Positions 2,631 through 62,583 of a DNA stretch of 64,000 nucleotides are shown piece by piece; within the stretch, counting starts at the first letter, position 1; every line of letters begins with the position of its first letter. Location of the stretch: the NCBI GenBank assembly GCA_041661425.1, contig JBAZUI010000003.1, positions 10,446 through 74,445 of the forward strand, read 5' to 3'. Below the pieces are notes generated by a model. It made no database searches, was not told the DNA's origin, and worked only from the letters and a program-made list of their open reading frames with translations. Made by a program: the position numbers and the translations under genes. This DNA comes from Patescibacteria group bacterium. GTDB lineage: Bacteria > Patescibacteriota > Patescibacteriia > UBA9934.

Positions 2631-2631
2631 C

Positions 2632-31628: not shown

Positions 31629-32083
31629 ATTGGATCGCCACACGGGTTCATCTCCCCGGCTTTTCGATGCTCGAAATGCTTCTTGTGGTGGCAACCATTG
31701 GGATTCTTGCCACCATTTCTATCCCGATCTATCGCTCAATCCTCACGGGGAATGAAATGCAAGTCGCGCGTGAAATTCTTGTGCGTGGCCTTCGTGTTGC
31801 AGAGCTTCGCACCCAATCAGGAGCTGAGGATGCATCTTGGGGAGTATTTGCACAAAGCGGTTCCGTGACGATTTTTTCCGGAGCGAACTATGTTGAGCGC
31901 GATCCAACCCTTGATGATATTTATGTCGTCTCCCAAGAACTCAATTTTTCCGGAGATACGGAAGTGACGTTCACCGCCCCGTTCGGTCAGCTTCTCACGG
32001 AAAAAACACTCATCCTCTCTCAAACTGGACATGACTCCATTTCAATTACCATTAATCTTGAAGGAGCAATCGCCTATGAATAG
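31625..32083 (+). CDS. Pseudopilin (GspH/FimT-like) with prepilin cleavage motif
   Basis: ATGA overlap with pilC. PGFSMLEMLLVVATIGILA matches G|F..LE at +5. Confidence 0.7.
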   Translation: MNWIATRVHLPGFSMLEMLLVVATIGILATISIPIYRSILTGNEMQVAREILVRGLRVAELRTQSGAEDASWGVFAQSGSVTIFSGANYVERDPTLDDIYVVSQELNFSGDTEVTFTAPFGQLLTEKTLILSQTGHDSISITINLEGAIAYE

Positions 32084-36324: not shown

Positions 36325-36786
36325 ATGAAATACTCATTTCAAAAAGGATTTACTTTATTGGAAATCCTCCTCGTGGTTGCGGCGATTGCGATCTTGGCTG
36401 GGATCGTGATTATCGCTATCAACCCTGCAAAACAATTGGCCGAAGTCCGCAATGCGCAACGAGCTATTGATGTGAATACGATTCTCAATGGCGTCTATCA
36501 ATATTCCATCGATAATAACGGAGATCTGCCCGCTTCTGTTAATGGCGGAACGAGCTGTGGAACTGTTGAGGAAGATGAAATTTGTACAACCGGTGGAACT
36601 TGTACGGATCTTACTGATTTGGGCGTGATTACAGCGGATCAAACGTATCTCGTCAGTATGCCGGAAGATCCGCAAGATGCAACCGCAAATGGAACAGGGT
36701 ATTTTATTATTCAAAGTACGAACGGCCGTGTGACCGTTTGCGCTCCCGGAGCAGAATTAGATGCAACGATTACCGTTACTCGATAA
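36325..36786 (+). CDS. pilA: Type IV major pilin (PilA-like) copy 1
   Basis: QKGFTLLEILLVVAAIAILAGIVI prepilin leader, 153 aa, C-terminal Cys pair. Confidence 0.8.
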   Translation: MKYSFQKGFTLLEILLVVAAIAILAGIVIIAINPAKQLAEVRNAQRAIDVNTILNGVYQYSIDNNGDLPASVNGGTSCGTVEEDEICTTGGTCTDLTDLGVITADQTYLVSMPEDPQDATANGTGYFIIQSTNGRVTVCAPGAELDATITVTR

Positions 36787-36787
36787 T

Positions 36788-37234
36788 ATGAAAAAGGGGT
36801 TTACGCTTATAGAAATTCTTCTCGTGGTGGCGGCTATTGCGATTCTTGCCGGGATTGTGATCATTGCCATTAACCCCGCCAAACAATTAGCCGAAGTTCG
36901 AAACGCACAGCGTTGGGAAAATGTGAATACGATTTTGAATGGCGTCTATCAGTATTCCATCGATCACAATGGTGATCTCCCAACCACGATCAATGAAAAT
37001 TCAAGTTGTGCGGGGTATGCCGTGAATGAAATTTGTTATGGGTCTTCGTGTGCAAGTTATACGAATTTAAGTGCACTCACAACAGAAGAAGTCTATTTAG
37101 TTGGTATGCCACGCGATCCCTCAATTTCTTCAGGAAGTGGGTCTGGATATTTTATTCACAAAACCGAATATGATCGTGTTGAGGTCTGCGCTCCCGAAGC
37201 TGAACTAGAAGAGACGATTAGTGTAAAACGATAA
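36788..37234 (+). CDS. pilA: Type IV major pilin (PilA-like) copy 2
   Basis: MKKGFTLIEILLVVAAIAILAGIVIIAINPAKQLAEVRNAQR is near-identical to copy 1 over the first ~45 aa. C-terminal half diverges. Confidence 0.8.
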   Translation: MKKGFTLIEILLVVAAIAILAGIVIIAINPAKQLAEVRNAQRWENVNTILNGVYQYSIDHNGDLPTTINENSSCAGYAVNEICYGSSCASYTNLSALTTEEVYLVGMPRDPSISSGSGSGYFIHKTEYDRVEVCAPEAELEETISVKR

Positions 37235-37283
37235 GGGGATGTCGAGGCAGGTCTGTGACCTGCCTTTGTGATTTTCGTTATTT

Positions 37284-38039
37284 ATGGTCATCGAGATCGT
37301 GATTGGAGGTATTTTTGGAAGCATCATCGCGAGTGCGATTGGATGTGCAGCCATGCGAGCGGGTGATGGTCGATCATTTTTTTATGGTCGATCGCTTTGT
37401 GATGGATGTCAAAAAATATTGCATCCTCTTGCTCTGATTCCAATTTTAAGTTTTTGTTTTCAAAAAGGACGTGCGCGATGTTGCGGGGTGCGACTTTCGC
37501 GAATTTATTTGCTTCTTGAAATGGTTGGGGCCATCCTTGGAGGATATATAGGATACGAGATTTGGCAGGGGGTGAGTACATGGGGAGTGATTCGATGGAT
37601 TTTGGTGATTGGATTTATTCTTTGGACTATCGCAACCGATGGACATAAGATGCTAGTTTCTCTTCCGGTCACTTTAGGATTTTCTGTCATCATGATGATT
37701 CTTCCTTTTGAATACGGGACTATCTTTAATCGTTTATTCATGGCCGGATGTTTTGTCATATTTTTTGGTGTGCAGTATTTATTCACAAAAGGAAAGGGGA
37801 TTGGGACAGGTGATTTTGCACTCGGGATTGCTCTTGGAACGAGTTTGGGATTTCCGTTAGCAATTATCGCTGCAATGGTTGGCTATGTGATTGGCGCCTT
37901 TCACGCGATGTATTTGCTGATGATAAAAAAAGCGGATCGAAGAACTCCCTTGCCATTGGGGGTGTATTTAATGTTGGGTCTCGCGATTACTTTTATGGGA
38001 TCTTCTTTTATTTTTTCTTGGTTAGGGATTGTACAATAA
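37284..38039 (+). CDS. pilD: Prepilin peptidase PilD (A24 family)
   Basis: 8 TM, N-terminal Cys pairs CDGC / CCG, catalytic Asp-containing loops. Confidence 0.8.
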
Positions 38040-38197: not shown

Positions 38198-38214
38198 CGA
38201 AGAACCACCCCTTA

Positions 38215-38270
38215 CCCCTCCTTTGAAAGGAGGGGTAATTACGTAGGGACAGGTCGCGACCTGTCCCTAC
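38215..38270. repeat. Two palindromic units: CCCCTCCTTTGAAAGGAGGGG and GTAGGGACAGGTCGCGACCTGTCCCTAC
   Basis: Both belong to families that recur elsewhere in the window (48.77 kb, 54.38 kb; 37.25, 42.03, 49.05, 52.3 kb). Confidence 0.7.
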
Positions 38271-38429
38271 AGAATGATGCAGGTGGATAAAATTTCAATA
38301 GGTAGAATGACAGATAGAACGAAGAAAGCCGAGACAGGGGTTAGGGGCTGGAACCCCCTTAAAAACAATTCGAGTCCCGTTTCGCGAGACGAGTAGTCTC
38401 AAGCGATACGGGACTCAGAGAGGTGTGCG

Positions 38430-40082
38430 CTAGTAGTTGGACTTCGTGACCCGCACGGCCGGACATCCACCCGAAGGTGTGTGGCCGGGTCGGGGCACGC
38501 AGTCCTCGAGGAGGGGCGAGCCGTCGACGAGGATCGTGCGATCGCTCACCGTGGCGCCAGCCACCTCGATACGGTAGCGCACTCCATCGATTTTTCCGCA
38601 CCCCACCACCACGCCGGAGTCGTTCCGGTAGGCAATGTAGGTGTGGAAGATCTCCGGCGCCGGAGTTTCTGCCGCGCTGACCTCGGCCACGGTCGTGATG
38701 GCTGGCTCTGATTTCCACTCGGGGAGCTTGGGCCAGCCAACCTCGGGGATCGCGACATCCGGCATGCTCGGACGCCAGGTAGGCATGGCCGGCAGGCTGA
38801 TGGTCGGCGCCTTCGGCCAGGTGATGGCCGGAGCCTTGGGCAGATTCGGGATGGAGATGCGGGGCATCTCCACCTTGGGCCAAGTCCAGGGCTCATTGGG
38901 CGGCGGAGATTCTTCCTCCTCGAGTGCGGTGAGGAGCGCGGGGTCGGGCTTTGCCTCGACCATCACGAGCTTCTCCTGGGGCGCATCAACGAGGATCAAC
39001 CCGTCGAGCTGACCCACGAGCACGAGGACGAGAACGGTGAGTGTGACACCCACTATGAACTCGAACCCCATCGCGACCGCTCCCCACGTCGCGATGCGTT
39101 TGACGAGCGAAGGCTGTCTTGGCCTTGCTTCGCGTGGAGTTGCCGGTGGCGGAGCATAGCGACGCTCCTGTGCCGGGGTCGTACTCCAGGCGAGTAGTTC
39201 CTCGTCTTCCCAGACGTCCCCGTCGGACGCGTTCCTCTCAGGCGCAGGCCTCACGGTCACAACATCATTGGGGTCGATGTCGATCACGATCGGCCGTGGA
39301 ACCCGTGGGGCGTGCTGGGGAGCTGGCGTCCGTTGCTCGGCGAGGACCGGGAGCTGATCCTCCTCCCACTCGACCATCACAGGCCTTGGGCCTGGGGCGC
39401 GGTAGAATTGCCCGAGGTCCGGCATCATCTTCTTGGTCGATCCGATGACTGCTGGGAGCAGCCGCGCATCGCCCGTATCTTCGTCCAGTATGAAGATCGG
39501 GGCTTCTTCGTCGATTTCGATCACCGCCCCATCGGTCGGGTCGGCGTCGGGATCGATGAACTCGAGGTTGCTGAAGTCATCGAGAACAGTTTCCGCCCGG
39601 GACCAGGTACCCTTGGGAGCTGTCCAGATCCCCAGCTCATCCGCGAGAGCCTGGATGTGCCTCTCGAACTCCCTCGAGATCTTCAAGAGGGAGGTCGCGA
39701 TCACTGCGACAGCCTCGGGAATCGGGAAGTCGGAGAGAACATCAGTCTGTTCTTTTTTCATCTTCTCGATGTCGCCCATGGTCGGACGACGGGGAAGGCT
39801 CGCAATGAGCATCCTGTGGTGTGCGAGCATGGTTTCCACGCTCTGCACACCTTCGAGAACTTCGTCGGCACCCACTGCCTTCTTGCAGAATGCAGCGAGT
39901 TCGACTCGAAGGGGCTCGAAGAAGTCGCTGACATCCTTTGGCGGGATTTCCACCTCAATCAGCAGGGATGTCGCGAGCTCCTTGAACACGATGCCTACCG
40001 AGAAGAACGGTGCATCGTCTTTCTGAATGTTCTCGAGACAGGCAACAGCATAACGGACAGAAGCCTTGAAAGTGTCGAGCAT
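38430..40082 (-). CDS. Hypothetical membrane protein of high-GC island 1 (cytoplasmic N-domain, TM, Pro-rich ectodomain with WPK repeats and Cys-containing C-terminal module)
   Basis: GC3 near 90%, unlike host genes. Opposite-strand ORFs are low-complexity mirrors. Confidence 0.5.
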   Translation of the reverse strand: MLDTFKASVRYAVACLENIQKDDAPFFSVGIVFKELATSLLIEVEIPPKDVSDFFEPLRVELAAFCKKAVGADEVLEGVQSVETMLAHHRMLIASLPRRPTMGDIEKMKKEQTDVLSDFPIPEAVAVIATSLLKISREFERHIQALADELGIWTAPKGTWSRAETVLDDFSNLEFIDPDADPTDGAVIEIDEEAPIFILDEDTGDARLLPAVIGSTKKMMPDLGQFYRAPGPRPVMVEWEEDQLPVLAEQRTPAPQHAPRVPRPIVIDIDPNDVVTVRPAPERNASDGDVWEDEELLAWSTTPAQERRYAPPPATPREARPRQPSLVKRIATWGAVAMGFEFIVGVTLTVLVLVLVGQLDGLILVDAPQEKLVMVEAKPDPALLTALEEEESPPPNEPWTWPKVEMPRISIPNLPKAPAITWPKAPTISLPAMPTWRPSMPDVAIPEVGWPKLPEWKSEPAITTVAEVSAAETPAPEIFHTYIAYRNDSGVVVGCGKIDGVRYRIEVAGATVSDRTILVDGSPLLEDCVPRPGHTPSGGCPAVRVTKSNY

Positions 40083-40255
40083 TCTCCCCTCCCGGGGTTT
40101 GCGGTTTTTGTGGTTGGATAACAGAAAGTTTGAAAAGAACAGAGGGGAACATTAACAAAAAAAATGCGTCTTGTCAACGCATGATCTTAAACGAAAATGC
40201 CCCCCGACCGAAGTTAGACTTCAATCGGGGAGCAGGGGCCTGACAGACGGGAGCG

Positions 40256-41782
40256 CTAGTTGATGCGCTCGACCGTTGGGCAGGCCCGGCTGGCGGGGGT
40301 CGTCTCGCCAGGATTGCCGGTGAGGCAATCCCAGGCCACGGGCTTGCCGCGGTAGCGGCAGGCACCGTCCTCGGCGGGCTTCACATTGAGCCCGTTGAGG
40401 AAGTACTGCCCGCCCGTGGTGGGGCGGACCACGACCGCGCCGTGTCCGGCGACCTGGCGGCCACACGGCACGAAAGCCGTGGGCACCGGCGGGGCCGCGG
40501 GCTGCTCGAGGGCGCTGAGGCGCGCCTCGAGGTCGGCCAGGGCCTCGTCCGTGTCGGACGAGGCGACTGGGACGGGGGTGACCACCACCGGGATCGTCTC
40601 GACGACGGCCGGGGTGCTCACCCACCACCAGCCGCCGATTCCGGTGGTCCCCACGAGGCCGGCGCACAGGGCGCAGGCCAGGAGGAGGGCGAGCAGGGCA
40701 ACGAGGCCCAGACACCCGCCCTTCCACCATCCCCACCAGCCGTTGCCCTTGGCGGGCGGGTCGGCGGGGGGATCGGCCACCGCCACCTTCTTGGTGGGCG
40801 GCTCGTCCGGCGGGCCACCGGCCATGGCCGCGAGGCCGATGACCGGGACCACGGGGATGAACGGTGGCGGGGCCACGGCGCGGGGCGCCGGGGCCGGGTC
40901 GGTGTCGGCCGCCGCCTTGTCCACGGCCGCGCTGAGCGCGGCGTCGTGGTTGGGGCCGGCGGGCGGGTCGGCCACGGTCGCCTTGGGGGCGATCTTGGCC
41001 GTGGCATCCCCGGGGTCGGGCACCACGGCCGCGAGGACCGTGGGGACCGGGCGCGGCGGGAGGCTCGGGCCCTTGGGGGGCTCGGGCTCGGCCGGGGCCG
41101 GGGTGGCGGCGGGCGGGTCGGTGGGCGAGGAGGCGATCACCTCCTCATCCTCATCCTCGTCCTCGTCGTCCGCGTCGGTGTCGGTCGGGTCGGGCTCGAC
41201 CGGGGCAGCCTCGGTAGCCGCCTTGGCCGCCTCGACGGCCTGCTCGGCCCGGTGGGCCGCGGCGCGGGCCGCCTCGGCCGTGGCCTCGGCGGTATCGGCC
41301 TCGGCCTTGCGGCCGTCGGCGATCGCCTCGGCCGAGCCGGCCTTGTCGGCGGCCTCGTCCGCCTTTCGGCCGAGGTCGTCGTCGTCGGGGCTGGCCTCGG
41401 CCACGGCGTCGGCCTTCTTGGCGATCTTCCGGAGCCGTTCGGCCTCGATCACGGCGGCCTCGGCCAGCGACTTTTTGCCGCCGGCGATGGCCGCAAGCAC
41501 CATGAGCTCGTCGGCCTTGAGCCGCTCCCAGAAGGCCACGACCTCGGGGTCGATTGACGACTCGTCGGTTTTGGCGAAGGCGTCGAGCGCCTCGGTCGCG
41601 GCGACGATCTGCTCGCGCAGCTCGCCGAGCTCGAGGTTGAGCTCTTCGGCCTCATCGGTCTTGGCCTCGGCCTCGAGCTTGGCCTTGGTGGCCAGGAACT
41701 CGGCGACCGACTCCGCCATGAGCTGGCGGAGGGCCGCGAGGGTCGCGGCGGAGGCGGGGGTGACGGCGGGGGTCTGGGTCAT
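40256..41782 (-). CDS. Hypothetical membrane protein of high-GC island 1 (Ala/Glu-rich coiled-coil N-terminus, poly-acidic tract, TM, Trp cluster, Cys-containing C-terminal module)
   Basis: Same architecture as the 38430 gene, so probably a paralog. Very high GC3. Confidence 0.5.
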   Translation of the reverse strand: MTQTPAVTPASAATLAALRQLMAESVAEFLATKAKLEAEAKTDEAEELNLELGELREQIVAATEALDAFAKTDESSIDPEVVAFWERLKADELMVLAAIAGGKKSLAEAAVIEAERLRKIAKKADAVAEASPDDDDLGRKADEAADKAGSAEAIADGRKAEADTAEATAEAARAAAHRAEQAVEAAKAATEAAPVEPDPTDTDADDEDEDEDEEVIASSPTDPPAATPAPAEPEPPKGPSLPPRPVPTVLAAVVPDPGDATAKIAPKATVADPPAGPNHDAALSAAVDKAAADTDPAPAPRAVAPPPFIPVVPVIGLAAMAGGPPDEPPTKKVAVADPPADPPAKGNGWWGWWKGGCLGLVALLALLLACALCAGLVGTTGIGGWWWVSTPAVVETIPVVVTPVPVASSDTDEALADLEARLSALEQPAAPPVPTAFVPCGRQVAGHGAVVVRPTTGGQYFLNGLNVKPAEDGACRYRGKPVAWDCLTGNPGETTPASRACPTVERIN

Positions 41783-42070
41783 CGGAAACTCCTTGCCCTC
41801 TTGGAGGGCAATGGGGGTGGTGGATATTTGCCAGGGGGTCAGCTTCTCGGTCGACCCCTGGCGGGTTCTTCAGATGTAAATGAAGGAGATCGCCCCTTTT
41901 TGAGGTTTTAAGGCCTCTTAAAGGGACGATTCCAGGCTTGAACTGGACCGGGTATTATAGCAGAAAAACAGCGATTTGTCAATGATTCAAATGAAAAAAT
42001 CGCCTTATCTTGGCGAAATTCATGGGCAGGTCACAGACCTGCCCGTACGCAAATCAATCAAAACAAAAAG

Positions 42071-42697: not shown

Positions 42698-42808
42698 TTT
42701 TTTGGATCAAGGATAAACTCGATGAGATGTTGGCGCGTGGGGAAGCAAGCCTCCGAGACGTACACATTGTACGAAGAGGAGGTTGCGGGGCCCCACAAAC
42801 CAACAGAT
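42698..42808 (-). ncRNA. Copy A of a ~106-nt structured intergenic element (infC-rpmI spacer)
   Basis: Reverse complement aligns with copies at 53364 and 62466. Ends are conserved and internal helices carry compensatory changes. Confidence 0.55.
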
Positions 42809-42827
42809 CGCGAGTTTATCATTGATC

Positions 42828-43379: not shown

Positions 43380-43637
43380 GGGTGATGGATATTTGTTTCA
43401 AAATTTGTGGCAAATTTTCGTCATTCTGAGGCCAACCTGTCCTTCGAAGCCCAAAGGGCGAAGGAGGAAGGCCGAATGAATCTCTTGAGCGATTATTAAG
43501 AGATCCTTCGCTTTGCTCAGGATGACGGCGGGGGACTGAGTCCTCCTACGCTCCTCGGCATCGCTTCGGAGCTTCGGAGGACAACCTTCGCTTCAGCTGG
43601 CAGGGTGGCCTGCCAACCGTAGCTTCAGCGAAGCTGA
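43380..43637 (-). promoter_or_regulatory. Highly structured leader upstream of infC-rpmI-rplT (candidate L20-type autoregulatory leader and/or repeat-derived)
   Basis: CGTCATTCTGAGG pairs with CTCAGGATGACGG ~130 nt away with a G-U. Several nested hairpins. Shares the CGTCATTGCGAG motif family. Confidence 0.35.
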
Positions 43638-44039: not shown

Positions 44040-44060
44040 ACGTTAGGACTTCCGCCTTTA

Positions 44061-44175
44061 GCGCATAGCTTTGTCAAAAACCTCCGCACTTCGTCACCGT
44101 ACGCATTGGTACGGCTCCTCGTTGCTCGGTTTTTTCCTCGCTCTGCATCTAAAGGCGAAAGTCCTAAAAGTTCTC
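44061..44175 (+). repeat. Copy 1 of a ~115-bp conserved intergenic element (second copy at 46938-47043)
   Basis: Shared ends GCGCATARCTTTGTCRAAA ... CTCGYTCTGCATCYAAA..CTAAAAGTTCT. Internal hairpin covaries (CCGTAC/GTACGG vs CGGAC/GTCCG). Confidence 0.5.
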
Positions 44176-46916: not shown

Positions 46917-46937
46917 TATGCAGGACTTTTGTCTTTG

Positions 46938-47043
46938 GCGCATAACTTTGTCGAAACCTTCGTTTTTCGTTCAACGGACATCTGGGTCCGTCTCACGAAA
47001 AGCCTTTGTTTCTCCTCGTTCTGCATCCAAATCTAAAAGTTCT
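46938..47043 (+). repeat. Copy 2 of the ~115-bp conserved intergenic element
   Basis: See copy 1 at 44061-44175. Confidence 0.5.
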
Positions 47044-48759: not shown

Positions 48760-49140
48760 TCGCGACCACCCCTCACCCCTCCTTTGAAAGGAGGGGTCTC
48801 CTTCTGGAGCCTCCCCCTTAAGCAAGGGGGAGTAAAGAGGGGGTTATGAAAACCGTGGGGCGACCGGCCGGTCGCCCATAGTAAGCGAAGTGTATGGGGG
48901 TGTAAATTCGATTTTCTTGACACCGGTTTTCTCCTCTGTTAGGTTTGAACCATGAAGCCCCTTGGAAGGGCTCGGTGGAACGGTCGTGACGCCTCCTCCT
49001 CGTCGCGATTCGTCCCCGCCGAGCCTTTCGAGGGGGTTTTTGTTTTTGGGCAGGTCGCAGACCCGCCCGTACGGCGTGATGTAGGGGCATGGCATGCCAT
49101 GCCCATACGCCAAAGCGCGTTTTTTTGCTCATTTTACCCA
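48760..49140. repeat. BIME-like cluster of GC-rich palindromic units
   Basis: CCCCTCCTTTGAAAGGAGGGG, CTCCCCCTTAAGCAAGGGGGAG, GGGCGACCGGCCGGTCGCCC, GGGCAGGTCGCAGACCCGCCC, GGCATGGCATGCCATGCC in series. Confidence 0.6.
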
Positions 49141-49415: not shown

Positions 49416-50396
49416 ATGACCCTGTCCCTCGCTCTGTCCCTCGCCCTGTCCCTCGCCACCCCGGCCCTGGCCCAGGACCTCCCGTCCTGCCCGGCTGGCC
49501 ACCACCTCAAGCCCGCCGACGCCGAGTGTGTCGACGATGTGGTGGCGGCCCTGCCGCCGACGGCCGAGTCGGCACAGGCCGCGGCCGATGAGGCCAAGGC
49601 CCTGATCGCGGACCTGCAGCAGCAGGTCCGCGCCTACCGCATCACCCAGGCCACGGCCAACGCCCAGGCCAAGGCCGACCTCGAGCTCGTGATTGCGGGA
49701 CTCAAGTCCCGCATCGAAGAGCTTCAGGCCTTGGTGGCCCGGGGCAAGGCCGACCAGGCCGTGGTCGACGCCCGTCAGGATGACGTCACGGCCCAGGCCC
49801 AGGTCACGGCCAACGAGGCCAAGGCCGACGCGGCCAAGGCCAACAAGGCCGTGGGCGACGCCCGGTACGACATCGCCCAGCTCGGCATCCAGGCCGAGCT
49901 GCAGGAGGTGCGCCTCGGCCACGAAGAGGACGAGGAGGGCAGGATCGGCGCCCACGCGGGCGTCTGGGTCCAGTCCCACGGCGCAATCCCCGGGGTCGGC
50001 GACGAGCTGTCCGCGGGCGTGGTGGGAGGTCTCTCCTGGCGCGAGCGGACCTCTGCCGGCGAGACCTACGCCGACATCGGAGCCGTGCTCGGCTCCGACA
50101 ACATCCTCGGCGGTGCCGTGGAGCTTGGGCGGGTGTGGAACCTGCCCGTGGTCCCGATCGCCATCGGCATCGTGGCCGGGGCCGACGTCGTGGGCTACGA
50201 AGCCTACGATAGCAAGACCTCGTCCTCGTCACTGGGGATCGACGGCCTGGCCGGACCCGCCGTCACCGTCGATCTGGGCGGGGCGGAAGTCGATGTAGTA
50301 CCGGCGTTTTACGTCGGTACCATCCACAACCGGTTTGCCGTCCCGGACAACACGCTCCGGTCCGGCTTCGTCGGCTCGGTGAAGGTGCGGTTCTAG
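49416..50396 (+). CDS. High-GC island 2 secreted protein: signal peptide, Ala-rich coiled coil, beta-rich C-terminus ending in Phe (OMP-like)
   Basis: MTLSLALSLALSLATPALAQ signal. GC3 >85%. Terminal ...VKVRF. Confidence 0.55.
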   Translation: MTLSLALSLALSLATPALAQDLPSCPAGHHLKPADAECVDDVVAALPPTAESAQAAADEAKALIADLQQQVRAYRITQATANAQAKADLELVIAGLKSRIEELQALVARGKADQAVVDARQDDVTAQAQVTANEAKADAAKANKAVGDARYDIAQLGIQAELQEVRLGHEEDEEGRIGAHAGVWVQSHGAIPGVGDELSAGVVGGLSWRERTSAGETYADIGAVLGSDNILGGAVELGRVWNLPVVPIAIGIVAGADVVGYEAYDSKTSSSSLGIDGLAGPAVTVDLGGAEVDVVPAFYVGTIHNRFAVPDNTLRSGFVGSVKVRF

Positions 50397-50810
50397 AGCG
50401 CAACGCTCGAACCGCCGCCCTCACCAACTACGTGTTCGCGGGGATTAATCAAGTGCACTGCACAAGATTCTTCCCCGCGGATGCAACTTATCAAGAATTG
50501 TTACGGATGCTCTTCTAGTGTGAAGAACAGCCATAAGACTTCTTGAAAATTGAGGAAGTCAAGAACATTCAAATCGAAAATACAACGAACATCTGCGATG
50601 GTGCCGTCCACATGAGTGCTGATTAGCACTGAAGGATTGCCGACTAGACTAAATGGTTCCAAAGAAATTTTTGGCACTCATGAGTCGTCGCCATGGCAGA
50701 TGTTCGAAAGCTGCCTCCGCCCGCCCTTGGGGCGGCGGCAAAGTTTCCGCTCGCGACCCATCCCGGGTCTACGAGCAAGTGTCTAAACCTAGAAGTCCTT
50801 GGAGGACACC

Positions 50811-52016
50811 ATGATCCGATTCGCCCTGCTCCTCGCCGCCCTCGCCCTCTCCGCCTGCACCGGGGACCTTTTTGTCCCCGACAAGGCCGACGACGACGGC
50901 GACACCGACACCCCCACCGACGTCGACACCGACGGCGACGGGTACGACACCGACGTCGACTGCAACGACCACTCGGCCAGCGTCCACCCGGGCGCCACCG
51001 AGCTCTGCAACAACGTCGACGATGACTGCGACGGGTACGTCGACGAGGGCCTGGACTGCAACGACGCCGTCGACGCCGCCGGCGATGGCTATGCCTACGC
51101 CGACGACTGCGACGACTCCGACGTTTCCGTCCACCCCGGCGCCACCGAGACCTGCAACGGCATCGACGACGACTGCGACGACGACGTCGACGAAGGCATC
51201 GATTGCGATGCCGACGACGATGACGACGGCTACAGCGCCGCCGACGACTGCGACGACACCGACGCCTCCGTCCACCCCGGCGCGACCGAGACCTGCAACG
51301 AGGTCGACGACGACTGCGACAACGAGGTCGACGAGGACGTGACCGATACCTACTACCTCGACGACGACGGCGACGAGTACGGCGACCCCGACCACTCGGT
51401 CGAGGCCTGCGACGCGCCCGCCGGCTACGTCGACAACGACGACGACTGCGACGATGACGACGACGACGTCTACCCCGCCGCCGACGAGGACTGCAACGAC
51501 GGCGTCGACAACGACTGCGACGGCGACGAGGACGACGACGATGATGACTGCGATAGCGGCATCGTCTGCGATCCGGACGACAGCGACGACGTGGCCGACG
51601 GCTGCGTCGAAGTCTGCTGGTACCCCGACCCGGGGTCCGGCGCTGGCAACGACGTCGACGCCACGGTCTACGACCTGTGGTTCGGCGTCGAGACCATCGC
51701 CTCCGACGACACCATCGACCTCGTCGTGGTCGACTCCGGTTCGGCGTCGGGCATCTGCGTCGGCCTCTATGAGGACGACCTGGACGAGCTCCGCGTGAAC
51801 GTGGGGTTCGAGTTCGACGACGACGACTGGTCGGTCGACGGGGCATGGGACTCCGATTCCGATGATTTGGACGAGTGGTGGGCCTGCTCCACCTACTCGA
51901 CCGAAAACGGCGGGTTCTGGGGCCAGTTCACGGTCGACGGCGACACTGCCGACGACGTGGACGCCATCGACAACCCGGAGGAATCCGGGTACGACTGCCA
52001 GCTGAACAGCTGGTAG
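50811..52016 (+). CDS. High-GC island 2 lipoprotein with tandem MopE-type putative metal-binding repeats
   Basis: RBS GGAGGA precedes the ATG. Lipobox LALSAC. Four or more repeats DCDD.D.SVHPGATE.CNG.DDDCDG.VDEG. Asp-rich. Confidence 0.65.
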   Translation: MIRFALLLAALALSACTGDLFVPDKADDDGDTDTPTDVDTDGDGYDTDVDCNDHSASVHPGATELCNNVDDDCDGYVDEGLDCNDAVDAAGDGYAYADDCDDSDVSVHPGATETCNGIDDDCDDDVDEGIDCDADDDDDGYSAADDCDDTDASVHPGATETCNEVDDDCDNEVDEDVTDTYYLDDDGDEYGDPDHSVEACDAPAGYVDNDDDCDDDDDDVYPAADEDCNDGVDNDCDGDEDDDDDDCDSGIVCDPDDSDDVADGCVEVCWYPDPGSGAGNDVDATVYDLWFGVETIASDDTIDLVVVDSGSASGICVGLYEDDLDELRVNVGFEFDDDDWSVDGAWDSDSDDLDEWWACSTYSTENGGFWGQFTVDGDTADDVDAIDNPEESGYDCQLNSW

Positions 52017-52191
52017 AGTCCCACCCTCCGCCCTCTCTCTCAACTCCCGGCCGAGAACTACATGCGTCTGCGTGTGGTGCTCGTGTCCGGGGGTTTTTCG
52101 TTTTCACGTCATTGCAGGAGGCCTCATGGCCGACGCCTGCCCGTCCGAAGCTCCGATTATCCATCGTAGCTTTAGCGAAGACGGAAGGAGC

Positions 52192-52287
52192 GAAGGCGGG
52201 AAGCAATCTATCCGAACAGTTTGCTTCGTCCTCCCCTTGGTCGTCCTTCCGCCTTCGTCTTCTTCGGCGGACAGGCGCAATGACGGC
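52192..52287. repeat. Left arm of ~100-bp inverted repeat flanking rpsB-tsf
   Basis: Reverse complement matches 54104-54229 apart from a 33-bp insertion in the right arm. Contains GAAGCAATCT...AGATTGCTTC hairpin and GCGCAATGACGGC end. Confidence 0.7.
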
Positions 52288-52292
52288 AGAAG

Positions 52293-52354
52293 GGCGGGTC
52301 ACAGACCCGCCCGTACGTAAATCAATTCTGTAGGGGCAGGTCTGTGACCTGCCC
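52293..52354. repeat. Two head-to-head REP-like palindromes GGGC(G/A)GGTCACAGACC(C/T)GCCC
   Basis: Separated by GTACGTAAATCAATTCTGTA. Same family at 37246, 38243, 42024, 49048, 54261. Confidence 0.7.
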
Positions 52355-52510
52355 TTTTGGCGAATCCTTGACGAATCCCCATGTTTCCCCTACAATTCCC
52401 ACCAATCGCAACTGTCCTTCTAATCAATCAGGTTTGGGCGATATCCACTGGTTTCCTCCCAATTTATTGGGTCCAATGGATTCAAACCGCAGTCTAAAAG
52501 GAAAATTTCT

Positions 52511-53350
52511 ATGACCCACATCCCATCCATGCTCGATATGCTCAAGGCCGGCGTCCACTTTGGACATCGCACCAGCCGTTGGCATCCTAAAATGAAGTCC
52601 TATATTTTCGGCGCTCGCGGAGGCGTTCACGTCATTGACATCGAACAGACCCGCGCTCGTTTGGAAAAAATTCTGACGGATATTGAAAAGATGATTGCCG
52701 ACGGTGGCGTGATCATGTTCATTGGCACCAAAAAGCAAGTGCAGGATTTGGTCGCAAAGTACGCCAATGAATGCAATATGCCTTATGTCAACACGCGTTG
52801 GCTTGGAGGAACATTCACGAATTTTCCGGAAATCCATAAGCTTATTAAAAAGTATTTGGACCTCAAGGATAAACGTGTAAAAGGGGAACTCAAAAAATAT
52901 ACCAAGCTCGAACAATTGCAGTTTGATCGCAAAATTGAAGATCTTGATGGCCAAATCGGCGGAATCTCCATTCTCAAAGATTTACCAGATGCGGTATTCG
53001 TGCTTGATATGCGTCACGATAAAACAGCAGTGACCGAAGCGCGTTTGCGTGGCATCAAGGTGATTGGAATCTGCGACACCAATGTCAATCCGGAAATGGC
53101 CGATGAAGTTATTCCAGCCAATGATGATTCTGTTGCTTCTGTCACGATGATCACAAAATTGATTACCGAAGCCGTTCACGGCGGAAAGAGCAATGCCAAA
53201 AAAGCGATTGAACGTCGCGAGGCAGAACGCAAGGCCCGTGAAGAAGAATTGGCCGTGACCGCGGCTTCAAAAGCAACGGTCGAAGTGCTCGATGATGAAA
53301 TCAAAGAGAAACTCGCAAACGAAAAAATCGCTCAATTAAAAACGAAATAA
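52511..53350 (+). CDS. rpsB: 30S ribosomal protein S2
   Basis: LKAGVHFGHRTSRWHPKM... Confidence 0.95.
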   Translation: MTHIPSMLDMLKAGVHFGHRTSRWHPKMKSYIFGARGGVHVIDIEQTRARLEKILTDIEKMIADGGVIMFIGTKKQVQDLVAKYANECNMPYVNTRWLGGTFTNFPEIHKLIKKYLDLKDKRVKGELKKYTKLEQLQFDRKIEDLDGQIGGISILKDLPDAVFVLDMRHDKTAVTEARLRGIKVIGICDTNVNPEMADEVIPANDDSVASVTMITKLITEAVHGGKSNAKKAIERREAERKAREEELAVTAASKATVEVLDDEIKEKLANEKIAQLKTK

Positions 53351-53363
53351 TTAGAGACCTTGC

Positions 53364-53469
53364 AAAACTCGCGATCTGTTGGCTTGCGGGGCCCTGCCAT
53401 CTCCTCAACGTACACTCTGGTACGTCTCGGAGACTGGCTGTCCCGCGCACCAACATCTCATCGAGTTTT
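53364..53469 (+). ncRNA. Copy B of the ~106-nt structured intergenic element (rpsB-tsf spacer)
   Basis: AAACTCGCGATCTGTTGG...CCAACATCTCATCGAGTTT outer helix plus three inner helices. Confidence 0.55.
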
Positions 53470-53499
53470 GCGAAGGTCCAAGTATAATTCTATTTTTCT

Positions 53500-54099
53500 A
53501 TGGACATAAAAGCAGGGGATGTCCTTCAATTGCGACAAAAAACCGGCGTCGGCATGATGGAGGCAAAAAAAGCTCTTACCGAGGCCGAGGGTAATATCGA
53601 AAAAGCCATTGAATGTCTCAGAAAATCCGGAGCCGCAAAAGCTCAAAAACGTGCAGAACGCACAACCGCGCAAGGACGTGTGGAATGTTATTCCCATGCC
53701 GGCGGAAAAATTGGTGTGCTCGTGGAAGTGCAATGCGAAACGGATTTTGTGGCACTCAATGATCAATTCATTGAATTTTGTCATGATCTTGCTTTGCACG
53801 TTGCCGCTTCCAGTCCACTTTATGTAAACCGTGAAGATGTGCCGGAAGAGATGATCGCAAAGGAAAAGGAAATCATTCGTGAGCAAATTGCTGCTGAGGG
53901 TGGCAATAAGCCGGCAGAAATTGTTGAAAAGATTGTGGAAGGAAAGATCGCCAAGTATTTGCAAGATATTGTGTTGATGGACCAGACATTTATCAAAGAT
54001 GAGGATGTGACCATTCGAGCCTTGCTCGAATCGAAGATTCTCTCCATCGGGGAAAATATTCGCATCGCCCGCATTGCGCGATTACAAATTGGGGAATAG
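53500..54099 (+). CDS. tsf: Elongation factor Ts
   Basis: LRQKTGVGMMEAKKALTEAEGNIEKAIE UBA-like N-terminus. Confidence 0.9.
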   Translation: MDIKAGDVLQLRQKTGVGMMEAKKALTEAEGNIEKAIECLRKSGAAKAQKRAERTTAQGRVECYSHAGGKIGVLVEVQCETDFVALNDQFIEFCHDLALHVAASSPLYVNREDVPEEMIAKEKEIIREQIAAEGGNKPAEIVEKIVEGKIAKYLQDIVLMDQTFIKDEDVTIRALLESKILSIGENIRIARIARLQIGE

Positions 54100-54103
54100 C
54101 GGC

Positions 54104-54229
54104 GCCGTCATTGCGCCTGTCCGCCGAAGAAGACGAAGGCGGAAGGACGACCAACCTATTTTCCCTGCCGTCATTGCGAGGACGACCAAAGGGAGGACGA
54201 AGCAATCTGTTCGAATAGATTGCTTCGTC
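54104..54229. repeat. Right arm of inverted repeat flanking rpsB-tsf
   Basis: See 52192-52287. Carries two CGTCATTGCG(C/A) units. Confidence 0.7.
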
Positions 54230-54289
54230 GGCCATGAGGCCTTCTCGCAATGACGTGAGAGGGCGGGTCAAAAGACCTGCTCTTTTCGA

Positions 54290-54410
54290 TTTGTCATAGG
54301 GGCGACCGTTTGTTCATGCTATTCATAACCCCCTCTTTACTCCCCCTTGTTTAAGGGGGAGGCTCATAGAGTTCCCCCTCCTTTCAAAGGAGGGGGAAGG
54401 GGTGGTTCCC
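54290..54410. repeat. BIME-like palindrome cluster, inverted relative to 48760-49140
   Basis: CTCCCCCTTGTTTAAGGGGGAG and CCCCCTCCTTTCAAAGGAGGGGG. Confidence 0.6.
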
Positions 54411-54451
54411 GAATGCGATATGATATAATCATCTATATCGTTCGGAGGAAT

Positions 54452-57882: not shown

Positions 57883-59145
57883 AAGTTCGTGATCATAATG
57901 CCAACCGCTCACGCGCTCGGCCATAAAGGTACCGAGGGCATTGGCGCGTTGCCAAATATGTCCGCCATAACGCTCTTGTAGACGATCGAGGGCTTGAATG
58001 GTTGCCAGTATTTTTTGGTCTTTCTTGAAAAGGGAAGTGGGGATTGGGATGTGCTCAAGTCCGGAAATTGAAACACCAAGAAGACGCACGGAACAATGTG
58101 GATCACGAATATCCTCAAGAATTTGCCAAGCGCATTTATAGATATCAAGGCCATTCCAGAGTGGGATATGAAGACGACGAATCGTCGAAACGCCGGTAAA
58201 ATCCGCATAACGCGCAAAAACAGCAATGGTCCCGCCAACGGCTTTGGCACGCCGAAGACGCCAGGAAACCTTATCGCAAAGGGCGAGAAGATTGGTTTGT
58301 AATTCAATTTCCGTGTCAAGATTTTCCGGGAAGGTATAGGAGTGACCAATTGATTTTTCCGGTTGCGGTTCTGCAAGAATCGCATTCGATCCTTTGCCTC
58401 GTGCGGCATCGTAGAGGAAATTTCCATACGATTTGAAATGCATGAGAAGGATCGGTTTTGGTGTGGCGCGCAAATCCGCAATAGATTCAATACTCAGATT
58501 TTTAAGGCGTTTTGCAATGCGATGACCAATGCCGCAAATATCCTCGAGTTTCCTTGTGAGGACGAAATCCTCGACTTCGTGTGGCTGAACAACAGTGAGT
58601 CCATTTGGTTTTACCGATTCGCCTGCGAGTTTTGCAATGAGTTTATTGGGCCCGATCCCAATCGAAGCCGTGCAATATTCCCCGCAGATTTTTTTGATAT
58701 CGTCACGGATCACTTGAGCGAGCATAATCGCTCCAAAATAATCTTTTGCTGAGACGGTGATATCAGCAAAAGCTTCATCGGCACTAAATTGTTCTACCGC
58801 ATCGGTATGCTCGCGAAGAATGGCGAGAAAACGTTTTGTGATTTCCGCGTATTTGCGAGGATCGCCTGGAATAATTTGAAGATCGGGAACTATTTGTTTT
58901 GCCTCAAATGTTGACATGGCGGTTTTGACGCCAAGTTTTTTTGCTTCGCGTGAGGCCGTGGTGATGACGGATCGTTCAAACCGAAATTGCGAAACATCAT
59001 GAGCGCGACCGTCCATGGAAGCACGACCTTTGCCCGCGATGCCAATCGCCTTGCCACGCAAAAATGGATTCGCTTGTTGTTCAACAGAGGCAAAGAAAGA
59101 ATTGAAATCAACGTGAAGAATAATTGGCATATTTTCTGACGTCAT
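57868..59145 (-). CDS. dinB: Y-family DNA polymerase IV
   Basis: ILHVDFNSFFASVEQ catalytic motif. Confidence 0.85.
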   Translation of the reverse strand: MTSENMPIILHVDFNSFFASVEQQANPFLRGKAIGIAGKGRASMDGRAHDVSQFRFERSVITTASREAKKLGVKTAMSTFEAKQIVPDLQIIPGDPRKYAEITKRFLAILREHTDAVEQFSADEAFADITVSAKDYFGAIMLAQVIRDDIKKICGEYCTASIGIGPNKLIAKLAGESVKPNGLTVVQPHEVEDFVLTRKLEDICGIGHRIAKRLKNLSIESIADLRATPKPILLMHFKSYGNFLYDAARGKGSNAILAEPQPEKSIGHSYTFPENLDTEIELQTNLLALCDKVSWRLRRAKAVGGTIAVFARYADFTGVSTIRRLHIPLWNGLDIYKCAWQILEDIRDPHCSVRLLGVSISGLEHIPIPTSLFKKDQKILATIQALDRLQERYGGHIWQRANALGTFMAERVSGWHYDHELLEAK

Positions 59146-59172
59146 TGCGAGCCTAAAAGGCGAAGCAATCTA

Positions 59173-62457: not shown

Positions 62458-62465
62458 ACTGCTCC

Positions 62466-62583
62466 AAAACTCGCGATCTGTTGGCTTGCGGGGCCCTGCC
62501 ATCTCCTCATCGTACCTATCCGGTACGTCTCGGAGACTGGCTGTCCCGCGCACCAACATCTCATCGAGTTTTGAAGCAGTCCA
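62466..62583 (+). ncRNA. Copy C of the ~106-nt structured intergenic element
   Basis: Identical to copy B except the apical hairpin (CGTACC-tatcc-GGTACG vs ACGTAC-actctg-GTACGT). Confidence 0.55.

Follow-up and report, generated by a model that had tools for sequence, protein, structure and literature searches.

Hairpin repeats probably related to the NTS/SRM repeats of Ssn nucleases flank rpsB-tsf in a Patescibacteria chromosome

The rpsB-tsf gene pair of a Patescibacteria (CPR) chromosome is bracketed by two inverted repeats that are most probably composite arrays of Ssn-related hairpin repeats of the NTS/SRM family. The family, whose identity the sequence-only reading of this DNA had missed, has already been described as the NTS/SRM repeats of Ssn nucleases (PMC11893778). 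NTS is CGTCATTCCCGCGMAVGCGGGAATCYRG and SRM stands for Ssn-related motif (Chenal et al., Nat Commun 2025; PMC11893778); SsnA is a 94-residue single-domain GIY-YIG nuclease that cuts only ssDNA, 5' of the motif, and Ssn binds the unit only as ssDNA and on one strand only, the cut falling a few nucleotides upstream of the head (PMC11893778). For binding, the most crucial base is the C that follows the palindrome; for cutting, the three nucleotides that precede the palindrome are key, and the loop is replaceable and tolerates arbitrary extensions (PMC11893778). The characterised enzymes are those of Neisseria, N. elongata, N. wadsworthii and Wolbachia, the Ssn family is defined by CDD cd10448 (GIY-YIG_unchar_3), at least one SRM lies in 71% of the regions around ssnA homologs, and a gene in the NTS-gene-NTS layout is less often replaced by transforming DNA (PMC11893778). 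The copies in the window (the whole 64-kb stretch of DNA that was analysed) are apparently ORF-less relatives of cassettes that carry a GIY-YIG gene.

Two inverted composite repeats around rpsB-tsf

rpsB (ribosomal protein S2; positions 52511-53350, plus strand; Pfam PF00318, E 1.6e-77) and tsf (elongation factor Ts, short form; 53500-54099, plus strand; Pfam PF00889, E 7e-37) lie between a left composite repeat at 52105-52287 (183 nt) and a right composite repeat at 54104-54257 (154 nt). Both were delimited by self-comparison and alignment and are given no strand as wholes; the left is made of two oriented units facing each other, and the right stands in the opposite orientation. The inverted repeat is real and well above chance. 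Positions 52237-52287 and 54104-54154 are 100% complementary over 51 nt, 52200-52247 and 54179-54226 are 94% complementary over 48 nt, and the outermost match, 52104-52135 with 54226-54258, is also at 94%. Global alignment of the two copies gives 114 identical bases among 118 aligned (four mismatches, 96.6%) and three indels: one of 1 nt, one of 65 nt (52135-52199) present only in the left copy, and one of 35 nt (about 54155-54189) present only in the right copy, the last containing one more CGTCATTGCGAG at 54169-54180. The sequence-only reading had described arms of ~100 bp that should align at more than 85% identity, and it is borne out on the identity, while the homology reaches further out than it had drawn; its single insertion of 33 bp does hold the extra core but is 35 nt long, and the additional 65 nt of the left copy had escaped it. 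The central hairpin that it placed in each arm, GAAGCAATCT..AGATTGCTTC, is present in both copies, with one mismatch in the left. Folded as ssDNA, the left composite reaches -48.3 kcal/mol (z -5.3) and the right -42.4 kcal/mol (z -6.4).

The left composite repeat is located between the terminator of a GC-rich MopE-repeat gene and the rpsB promoter, a promoter-like site TTGACG-17-TACAAT at 52368-52396 (plus strand) that is conserved in the nearest relative; it is upstream of this site and outside the transcription unit, and the right repeat is inside the 3' end of the unit. The right repeat starts 5 nt past the tsf stop codon and ends just 5' of a hairpin with a T-run, GGGCGGGTC-AAAA-GACCTGCTC plus TTTT at 54261-54286 (plus strand), which reads as the likely tsf terminator and was not called by a consensus terminator scan. 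In the nearest relative a plain terminator follows directly 3' of the stop codon, whereas in the window the right repeat lies between stop codon and hairpin. Unit heads occur at both flanks of rpsB-tsf and on both strands (52107+, 52285-, 54106+, 54169+ and 54255-). The ORFs 52072-52320 and 53993-54271 share the spurious peptide LVVLPPSSSSADRRNDG, as had been noticed earlier, and should not count as genes in annotation. No database record was found for the window's Tsf protein. The spacers around rpsB-tsf hold four repeat families, and a separate family in the same window has the heads GTAG/GTAC.

Anatomy of the units

Eight oriented hairpin units, CGTCATTGCG...GAAGCAATC, are distributed over four intergenic sites of the window. 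Read 5' to 3', a unit consists of the head CGTC, the half-stem ATTGC, an inner part that varies and is often long, the half-stem GCAAT and a C, and two units in inverted order yield a long hairpin doublet. The head reads CGTCATT or CGTCATC in all eight units. The 12-mer CGTCATTGCGAG has three exact copies in the window and, with up to two mismatches, 18 matches against a shuffle mean of 7.55, none of 100 shuffles reaching 18. Stems seen in the window are ATTGC/GCAAT, ATTCT or ATCCT; ATTGC..GCAAT-C is found in units L1, R2, R3 and the unit at 59140, with GCAAAC in L2 and a truncation in R1.

Within the left copy, unit L1 (52107-52209, plus strand) comprises the head CGTCATTGCAGG, an inner GGCC..GGCC mini-hairpin, the 65-nt extra module (52135-52199), which is of the CCTGCCC...GGAAGG type, and the tail GAAGCAATCT; its head region is degenerate, with GCAGG for GCGAG. 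Unit L2 (52218-52285, minus strand) joins CGTCATTGCG, a CCTGTCC-hairpin-GGAAGG module, ACGACCAAGGGGAGGAC and GAAGCAAACT, and contains the 51-nt block that recurs unchanged in the right copy. Within the right copy, the truncated unit R1 (54106-54154, plus strand) has the head, the CCTGTCC..GGAAGG module and ACGACCAA without the GCAATC tail, and is followed by a complete doublet at 54169-54255, recognised by sequence and folding, of units R2 (54169-54208, plus strand) and R3 (54217-54255, minus strand). This doublet folds into a long hairpin in which CGTCATTGCGAG pairs with CTCGCAATGACG at the ends and GAAGCAATCT with AGATTGCTTC further in (-30.3 kcal/mol, z -9.0). Single window units fold weakly alone, at -3 to -6 kcal/mol with z not significant.

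Related copies near infC and dinB had been reported from the sequence; they exist, with revised coordinates. A doublet of a variant subfamily, again recognised by sequence and folding, occupies 43419-43527, in the spacer that separates the start of infC from the tmRNA gene's 3' end (-23 kcal/mol, z -3.7), with units at 43419 (plus strand, CGTCATTCTGAGG..) and 43527 (minus strand, CGTCATCCTGAGCAAAGCGAAGGATC), and a single unit, CGTCATTGCGAGCCTAAAAGGCGAAGCAATCT, lies at 59140-59171 (plus strand) in a short divergent spacer upstream of dinB. The proposed targeting of translation-gene spacers finds no convincing support: three of the four sites are of this kind, and translation genes are plentiful in the window (rough hypergeometric p ~0.06).

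Relatives and recent gain

The nearest relative (L141-L144; RpsB 88% identical in amino acids and 80% in nucleotides) has the same synteny and no unit on either side, and the more distant relative L145, with the same gene order rpsB-tsf-gap, has no unit at either site. Since both are without the two copies, a recent gain of both at these sites is suggested. The intergenic sequence of the relatives is too diverged for a clean empty site, so that loss in the relatives is a less likely alternative. The two copies may go back to two separate insertions. Alternatively, a local inverted duplication may have produced them, with later indels between short direct repeats, for example GGACGACCAA. The CPR relative L147 has a textbook NTS-like doublet, TGTCATTCCGGCGAACGCCGGAATCCAG.

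Distribution of the repeat and selection on the hairpin

Repeat units were found in viral contigs, Alphaproteobacterial megaplasmids, Bacteroidota, Omnitrophota and CPR genomes, and the family is thus not confined to this locus, in agreement with what had been expected of it. The arrangement CGTCATTGCGAG N5-35 GAAGCAATC occurs in at least 120 viral stretches, and the exact junction CGTCATTGCGCCTGTCC..GGAAGG at 19 loci belonging to Gottesmanbacteria, Omnitrophota, Algoriphagus, Cytophagales, Chitinophaga, Roseivirgaceae, Pseudomonadales and Eisenbacteria. The canonical 77-nt doublet is found at at least 40 places in a Novosphingobium megaplasmid, and also in Methylosinus and Methylobacterium, with a partial match in Aulosira; in BLAST against plasmids the right element of the window had no match, and only the canonical doublet matched. 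Half units occur singly among the canonical copies inspected. Viral and genome copies adjoin unrelated genes, e.g. phage structural genes, which were the only recurrent neighbour proteins in the viral loci. A literature search with the repeat or peptide strings returned chance primer matches or nothing.

Pairing in the stem is preserved across its variants: ATTGC stands with GCAAT in 198 of 201 units, ATTCC with GGAAT in 21 of 33 and ATTCT with AGAAT in 7 of 17. Compensatory changes are also seen in the distal stem of the CCTGTCC..GGAAGG module. The inner loops read GCGNAGC, which is the GNA-triloop DNA mini-hairpin motif (Hirao et al.), and their N is free (A in 36, C in 20, G in 10 and T in 10). 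Judged from the sequences compared, the compensatory stem changes together with the free-N loops indicate that selection acts on the hairpin.

Association with small GIY-YIG nuclease genes

A search led by the repeat found small single-domain GIY-YIG genes inside or between units, initially in loci L135 and L133. In 80 metagenome loci picked by protein homology alone, with a repeat core counted if within 250 nt of the gene, cores are present upstream in 66 of 79, downstream in 67 of 77 and on both sides in 62 of 80; core density is 11.6 per kb near the GIY-YIG gene vs 0.58 per kb beyond 400 nt, a 20-fold local enrichment. Where 150 nt are available on both sides (72 loci), the gene lies in the loop of a doublet in 20 cases and between complete doublets in 11. 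Versions of the repeat that bear an ORF encode solely the GIY-YIG nuclease of ~98 aa, and in database entries for proteins of this family repeat arms have been translated as N-terminal extensions. P0481, a Patescibacteria protein, shares 61% identity with that of Algoriphagus, and its gene in the Patescibacteria contig L472 is flanked by ATTGC-type units whose inner sequence resembles that of window unit R2.

The GIY-YIG proteins found here match Pfam PF01541 only, those of the repeat loci have no match in NCBIfam, and their PDB matches are only the UPF0213 relatives 1zg2 and 1ywl. Their size of 96-100 aa and the conserved Tyr, Tyr and Glu spacing in the alignment are compatible with residues Y6, Y17 and E64 of SsnA. 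Neither the 64-kb window nor the loci of the relatives contain an ssn (GIY-YIG) gene. A weak GIY-YIG similarity in the Gottesmanbacteria locus L122 was considered as an Ssn and rejected, the protein being UvrC.

The published SRM expression, HGTCWYN(0-2)YYVSBRHN(0-5)WNVSBRGN(0-2)RNCYNB, which is a search tool and not a definition of the family, has no match in the window (shuffle mean 0.25) and two in the 80 ssn loci, vs 396 CGTCATT heads there. It matches NTS and positions 4036-4063 of L147 and not the canonical ATTGC unit; the window units are missed because the expression asks for pyrimidines at positions that are G in this class and allows no loop longer than 5 nt.

Alternative explanations

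Singlets and inverted doublets forming long hairpins, absence of a target-site duplication and loop features typical of ssDNA are also the architecture of REP/REPIN elements mobilised by RAYT, a single-copy domesticated Y1 HUH transposase, and the parallel with REP/RAYT is drawn by the Ssn paper itself (PMC11893778). That the window copies are such elements is nevertheless very unlikely: their head is CGTC and not the GTAG/GGAG tetranucleotide of RAYT-type REPs, the enclosed gene is a GIY-YIG nuclease in 62 of 80 loci, and the window has no Y1 transposase. A homology search with the E. coli RayT gave no match in the window or in ~3.4 Mb of loci that have the repeat, a weak test for a gene that is single-copy per genome. 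The sequence-only reading had instead proposed a MITE-like or foldback family, which would be moved by a DDE transposase in trans and whose copies would bring about inversion or excision of rpsB-tsf. A dispersed non-coding hairpin family is what stands of this proposal; the proposed mobility accords with the formal terminal inverted repeats CGTCATTGCGAG/CTCGCAATGACG and with the lack of the element in the nearest relatives, but is highly improbable given that neither copy, nor any of the canonical copies examined, has a target-site duplication. The left copy passes from ttttCA into CGTC and from GACG into GCagaa, and the right copy (reverse complement) from ctctCA into CGTC and from GACG into GCgccg, with no direct repeat. 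Isolated half units, a 64-kb window without any transposase domain, and ORF-bearing versions that encode only the 98-aa nuclease and not a transposase point the same way. Inversion or excision of rpsB-tsf is left as a formal possibility only: RecA could in principle invert the segment by way of the 51-nt perfect inverted repeat, but no inverted variant was seen, the unitigs showing the repeat only as a graph branch point, and L145 keeps the order rpsB-tsf-gap.

The repeats might also act in RNA, as transcript stabilisers, processing sites, attenuators or terminators of translation-gene operons. The hairpins would form in RNA too, the right copy is probably transcribed, since it lies between the tsf stop codon and a terminator-like hairpin, and the copy near dinB falls within a 5' leader or promoter region. 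The chance that this is the explanation is very slight, however: the left copy is upstream of the conserved rpsB promoter, both unit orientations occur, GNA triloops are a DNA feature, the nearest relative manages without the element, and an Rfam scan of the window in gathering and E-value modes gave only the tmRNA, one tRNA and generic miRNA-like hairpin noise; the characterised SsnA, moreover, does not bind RNA (PMC11893778). An assembly artefact, i.e. a chimeric join or collapsed repeat in the metagenome-assembled contig, would be in keeping with the tendency of metagenome assemblers to break or mis-join at repeats and with the absence of an exact 24-mer of the arm from the JGI metagenome contig collection, and is nonetheless extremely improbable. 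Independent Logan unitigs from a sample with an identical RpsB reproduce part of the right-hand and the inner junctions, L001 (52258-53392) joining the arm to rpsB and L388 (54104-59574) joining the whole right element to gap-pgk-eno-dinB; that the unitigs end at a 30-nt overlap inside the repeat is expected of a true repeat. Synteny on both sides also agrees with that of the relatives.

Consequences

If the arms are composite arrays of Ssn-related repeats, as is preferred here, a cognate Ssn would be encoded elsewhere in the genome. While the region is single-stranded, during DNA uptake, replication or repair, either strand could then be cut on both sides of rpsB-tsf, since heads are present on both strands at both flanks. 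Given an Ssn, the layout around rpsB-tsf would mirror the Neisseria arrangement that lowers transformation-mediated gene replacement. This CPR bacterium encodes a type IV pilus apparatus, which could serve DNA uptake, and ultra-small bacteria are thought to depend on such uptake. The assignment places a repeat of very frequent occurrence in metagenomes in a family whose biochemical partner, the Ssn ssDNA nucleases, has been demonstrated, and extends that family to the Patescibacteria and to an ATTGC-stem, long-loop class undetected by the published pattern. In annotation, the repeat gives rise to numerous spurious ORFs and adds false N-terminal extensions to GIY-YIG proteins.

A more far-reaching joint reading, which must be regarded as rather unlikely, is that the ATTGC unit and the 98-aa GIY-YIG gene together would be an autonomous, cross-phylum, transposase-free ssDNA mobile element, that the ORF-less doublets would be its non-autonomous forms, and that the fresh arrays would constitute an NTS-gene-NTS module shielding or reshaping recombination at rpsB-tsf, an essential translation operon, by cutting incoming or exposed single strands on both sides of these genes. 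Were the autonomous-element reading true, the published survey would have under-counted the family, because its search expression misses the ATTGC class.

Comparison with known repeat systems

Correia elements and other bacterial MITEs resemble the window copies in a length of ~100-180 nt, in being non-coding and intergenic with terminal inverted repeats, and in a presence that varies between close relatives. Correia elements duplicate TA, whereas here there is no target-site duplication and no related IS with a DDE transposase, and the half units are modular and oriented. The NIMEs of Neisseria, in which dRS3 repeats (ATTCCC-N8-GGGAAT) flank RS elements (Bentley et al. 2007, PMC1797815), are likewise intergenic arrays around genes in which hairpin repeats alternate with other short repeat families; unlike these, the arrays of the window depart from the dRS3 consensus, are short at 2-3 units, and involve no phage integrase or dRS3-targeting prophage. 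REP, BIME and REPIN sequences share with the present units the short imperfect palindromes, the singlets and inverted doublets, the lack of a target-site duplication, a probable action as ssDNA hairpins and a small nuclease gene that is single-copy and has its own repeats on either side. However, the enzyme is GIY-YIG here and Y1 HUH there, the head is CGTC and not GTAG, and the REP-type repeats are species-specific, unlike the present repeat, which is conserved across phyla.

The NTS/SRM repeats differ from the window units in their stem, ATTCCC/GGGAAT as against ATTGC/GCAAT (also ATTCT and ATCCT), in an inner part of 3-5 nt as against 10-58 nt, and in their hosts, the Patescibacteria being absent by name from the main text (PMC11893778). 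What they have in common is the oriented head CGTCAT(T) directly 5' of the palindrome, half-stems of the form ATTxx/xxAAT followed by C and, in canonical copies, by Y-R-G, and a multi-copy, intergenic occurrence that brackets other genes and tolerates loop extensions. As a sequence class, the window itself having no ssn, the units also share with NTS/SRM their position on both sides of a single-domain GIY-YIG gene of ~94-100 aa.

Repeat units and their setting around rpsB-tsf

The window is a chromosome segment of Patescibacteria (CPR); its RpsB is identical to a database protein named 'Patescibacteria group bacterium' and has Uhrbacteria-like relatives. Gene identities were confirmed by Pfam: rpsB (52511-53350) and tsf (53500-54099) are preceded by infC-rpmI-rplT, the tmRNA gene and smpB and followed by gap, pgk and eno, with dinB on the minus strand. 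The intergenic repeat units are oriented: a CGTC head leads into the half-stem ATTGC, and after an inner part of variable sequence come the half-stem GCAAT and a C. Eight units occupy four intergenic sites of the window: a doublet between infC and the tmRNA gene (43419, plus strand, and 43527, minus), two units left of rpsB (52107, plus, and 52285, minus), three right of tsf (54106, plus and truncated; 54169, plus; 54255, minus) and a single unit at 59140 (plus) just upstream of dinB. The CGTCAT head of this unit shares bases with the first ATG of dinB (59145-59143); the true start codon appears to be the second ATG (59127-59125, MPIILHVDF..), which would put the unit in the dinB leader. As single-stranded DNA the inverted doublets fold into long hairpins (e.g. 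-30.3 kcal/mol, z -9.0, for 54169-54255), the whole arrays reach -48.3 kcal/mol (left, z -5.3) and -42.4 kcal/mol (right, z -6.4), and lone units fold weakly.

The ~100-bp inverted repeats that a sequence-only reading had placed on both sides of rpsB-tsf are real. An inverted-repeat search of the window pairs 52237-52287 with 54104-54154 (51 nt, 100% complementary) and 52200-52247 with 54179-54226 (48 nt, 94% complementary), and BLAST self-comparison adds an outer 94% match of 52104-52135 to 54226-54258; arms and outer match combined set the homologous blocks at 52105-52287 (183 nt) and 54104-54257 (154 nt). Left and right copy alike, written in the direction of the element, read CACGTCATTGC...GCAATGACGGC, and the central hairpin and spurious ORF peptide are, as proposed, each common to both. 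The two copies align globally with 114 identities, 4 mismatches and indels of 1, 65 and 35 nt; the 65 nt are extra in the left copy (52135-52199), and the 35 nt, extra in the right (about 54155-54189), are bounded by the direct repeat GGACGACCAA and thus fit a putative deletion by slippage or recombination. An assembly chimera is ruled out by two Logan unitigs from the sample with the identical RpsB, since L001 joins a repeat arm to rpsB and L388 joins the complete right element to gap-pgk-eno-dinB.

The left repeat lies 3' of the terminator of a GC-rich MopE-repeat gene and 5' of a promoter-like site, TTGACG-17-TACAAT (52368-52396), that is kept in the nearest relative. The right repeat starts 5 nt past the tsf stop codon and stops just short of a hairpin, GC-rich and followed by a T-run (54261-54286), which was recognised by inspection of the sequence and missed by a consensus terminator scan. 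The left copy thus stands outside the transcription unit and the right copy within its 3' end.

Other features of the window include two GC-rich islands (38430-41782 and 49416-52016; 61-75% GC vs ~47% background), the first with two ORFs, neither with a Pfam match, and the second with a 326-aa ORF and a MopE-type Cys/Asp-repeat protein; this second gene pair is kept in relatives L141 and L147, at 66-68% GC vs 39-47% for their other genes. There are also three very large ORFs (2530-12069, 3179 aa; 21065-26563, 1832 aa; 32031-35402, 1123 aa).

Spread of the family and association with GIY-YIG nuclease genes

The repeat family has a very wide distribution, and its structure is constrained. At least 120 stretches of the form CGTCATTGCGAG-N5-35-GAAGCAATC occur in viral contigs, where the canonical form is a doublet of ~77-90 nt, CGTCATTGCGAG[CGAAGC]GAAGCAATCCAG - loop - CTGGATTGCTTC[..]CTCGCAATGACG, and single units are likewise common. 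The canonical doublet matches at least 40 sites of a Novosphingobium megaplasmid; Methylosinus and Methylobacterium have it as well, Aulosira gives a partial match, and none of these matches is annotated. The junction CGTCATTGCGCCTGTCC..GGAAGG, as in units L2 (left copy) and R1 (right copy), occurs at 19 loci from Gottesmanbacteria, Omnitrophota, Algoriphagus, Cytophagales, Chitinophaga, Roseivirgaceae, Pseudomonadales and Eisenbacteria, with compensatory changes in the distal stem, and the stem co-varies by subfamily (ATTGC..GCAAT, 198/201; ATTCC..GGAAT, 21/33; ATTCT..AGAAT, 7/17). Inner loops are most often GCGNAGC, in which N is free; this is the very stable GNA-triloop DNA mini-hairpin, and it points to a repeat that would act as single-stranded DNA. 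An Rfam search returned no family matching the repeat. Inverted doublets are the usual arrangement; head-to-tail tandem arrays of units or unit heads, with a period of ~30-33 nt, were seen in loci L026 (2727-2818) and L125 (about 1290-1420).

Repeats of the ATTGC class are associated with a gene for a small GIY-YIG nuclease, in Patescibacteria too. Among the 19 genome loci, a jackhmmer search that started from E. coli YhbQ detected small GIY-YIG ORFs in L135 and L133, both from Bacteroidota, within or adjoining the loop of the repeat elements. The repeat-independent test comprised 80 metagenome loci picked by protein homology alone: repeat cores occur no more than 250 nt from the gene on its upstream side in 66 of 79 loci, on its downstream side in 67 of 77 and on both in 62, and they number 11.6 per kb close to the gene vs 0.58 per kb more than 400 nt away. 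Where the flanks suffice (72 loci), the gene sits exactly within a doublet loop in 20 and between complete doublets in 11. The Patescibacteria protein P0481 (98 aa, 61% identical to an Algoriphagus protein) is encoded in a typically CPR neighbourhood (rpmG, secE-nusG-rplK-rplA), with ATTGC-type units on both flanks that resemble window unit R2 in their inner sequence. The protein family is a large one (11,009 representative clusters at E <= 1e-3). Many small GIY-YIG database entries (P0246, P0252, P0253, P0264, P0277, P0308, P0326 and others) carry N-terminal extensions of 20-80 residues, e.g. ..SLRG..SNL.., ..VIAR.. and ..RHCE..EAIS..; these are translated upstream repeat arms, with mis-called start codons.

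History of the locus

The nearest relative (L141-L144) has an RpsB 88% identical in amino acids and 80% in nucleotides, and a gene order from rplT to tsf as in the window. No repeat units flank its rpsB-tsf on either side; a plain terminator follows tsf, and upstream of rpsB a different short hairpin precedes GC-rich palindromes and a promoter as in the window. Repeat units are likewise absent at the locus of the more distant relative L145 (67% identity; rpsB-tsf-gap as in the window). A gain of both copies in the window's lineage is the parsimonious account; the relatives' intergenic DNA is too diverged for a clean empty site. Left and right copies are much closer to each other than to other window copies; either one composite master was inserted twice or one copy was duplicated inverted, and the later indels between them fall between short direct repeats. 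After tsf the nearest relative has recR/ybaB on the opposite strand (L142, 2339-2761), and the window (54100-54451) and L145 have gap-pgk-eno; the synteny break thus falls exactly at the repeat-rich spacer 3' of tsf.

The repeats had been taken for a MITE-like or foldback family aimed at translation-gene spacers and perhaps mediating inversion of rpsB-tsf. A mobile-looking hairpin repeat family stands; MITE mechanics do not, as the window copies show no target-site duplication. Targeting of translation genes is not borne out: three of the four sites fit it, the window being rich in such genes (rough p about 0.06), and viral and genome copies adjoin unrelated genes, e.g. phage structural genes. 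Inversion is unsupported; synteny is conserved in L145. The 51-nt perfect inverted repeat could allow recombination between the copies, a repeat that the unitigs cannot bridge; the exact arm sequence had no match in the metagenome collection scanned.

The spacers around rpsB-tsf are mosaics of at least four repeat families. The second comprises GC-rich palindromes, GGGCRGGTC-NNN-GACCYGCCC with heads GTAG/GTAC, of classic REP-like anatomy (37245, 38245-38272, 42024-42049, 49048-49073, 49081-49108, 52292-52316, 52330-52354 and 54261-54286; six pattern matches vs 0.01 expected), including an inverted doublet at 52284-52362; these edge both GC-rich islands and adjoin both Ssn-type arrays. The third is palindromic, ~110-125 nt, with ends ..AAAACTCG / CGAGTTTT.. 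(53363-53470, 62465-62573, 42715-42817); its first copy, 95% identical to that at 62465 and 84% to that at 42715, fills the rpsB-tsf spacer, a gap of just 21 nt in the nearest relative. The fourth, ~110 nt with hairpin ends TTAGGACTTCCGCCTTTAG / CTAAAGGCGAAAGTCCTAA, lies at 44044-44153 and 46932-47043, and in L141 (9869-9991) directly upstream of rpsB, where the window is without a copy. A fifth repeat, of CCCCTCCTTTCAAAGGAGGGG-type hairpins, forms an inverted pair (48765-48850 and 54322-54406, 88%) bracketing the whole segment from GC-rich island through rpsB-tsf, and also occurs at 38202-38238.

Comparison with known systems

The window repeats are Ssn-type hairpin repeats, of the system described by Chenal et al. 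(Nat Commun 2025, PMC11893778). The Neisseria NTS, CGTCATTCCCGCGMAVGCGGGAATCYRG, extends the older dRS3 repeat. Homologs of ssnA, the gene for a GIY-YIG nuclease of 94 aa and a single domain, have NTS-like repeats, the Ssn-related motifs (SRM), on their flanks. SsnA binding to the hairpin requires single-stranded DNA and is confined to one strand, with the cut a few nucleotides upstream; for binding the C that follows the palindrome matters most, the three bases before the palindrome mainly govern cutting, and arbitrary loop extensions are tolerated (PMC11893778). Window units have the same head, half-stems and following C. The published degenerate SRM expression has no match in the window, and in the 80 ssn loci (L392-L471) it has 2 matches vs 396 CGTCATT heads, 306 of them followed by GC, because it calls for pyrimidines at positions where the ATTGC class carries G and allows no loop longer than 5 nt; it does match an NTS-like doublet in the CPR relative L147 (4036-4063). 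On these counts the published 71% ssn-repeat association is probably an underestimate for the ATTGC class.

The cognate nuclease would be encoded elsewhere in the source genome and would cut single-stranded DNA just 5' of each head; each flank carries heads on both strands, so in either strand cuts would fall on both sides of rpsB-tsf. The NTS-gene-NTS layout lowers transformation (PMC11893778), and rpsB-tsf between units is arranged in the way that, in Neisseria, limits the replacement of a gene through transformation. Type IV pilus genes of the window (28258-31628 and 36325-38039) encode a PilB-like ATPase, a PilC-like platform protein, a prepilin peptidase and two pilin-like proteins with N-methylation motifs, a set compatible with possible DNA uptake and of relevance in that Ssn repeats modulate natural transformation in Neisseria. 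The authors also remarked that NTS-ssnA-NTS resembles an insertion sequence and drew a comparison with REP/RAYT (PMC11893778), and the several families mosaicked in the spacers around rpsB-tsf recall neisserial NIME arrays (PMC1797815). The repeat family is thus one already described; new are its host group and a stem/loop variant missed by the published pattern.
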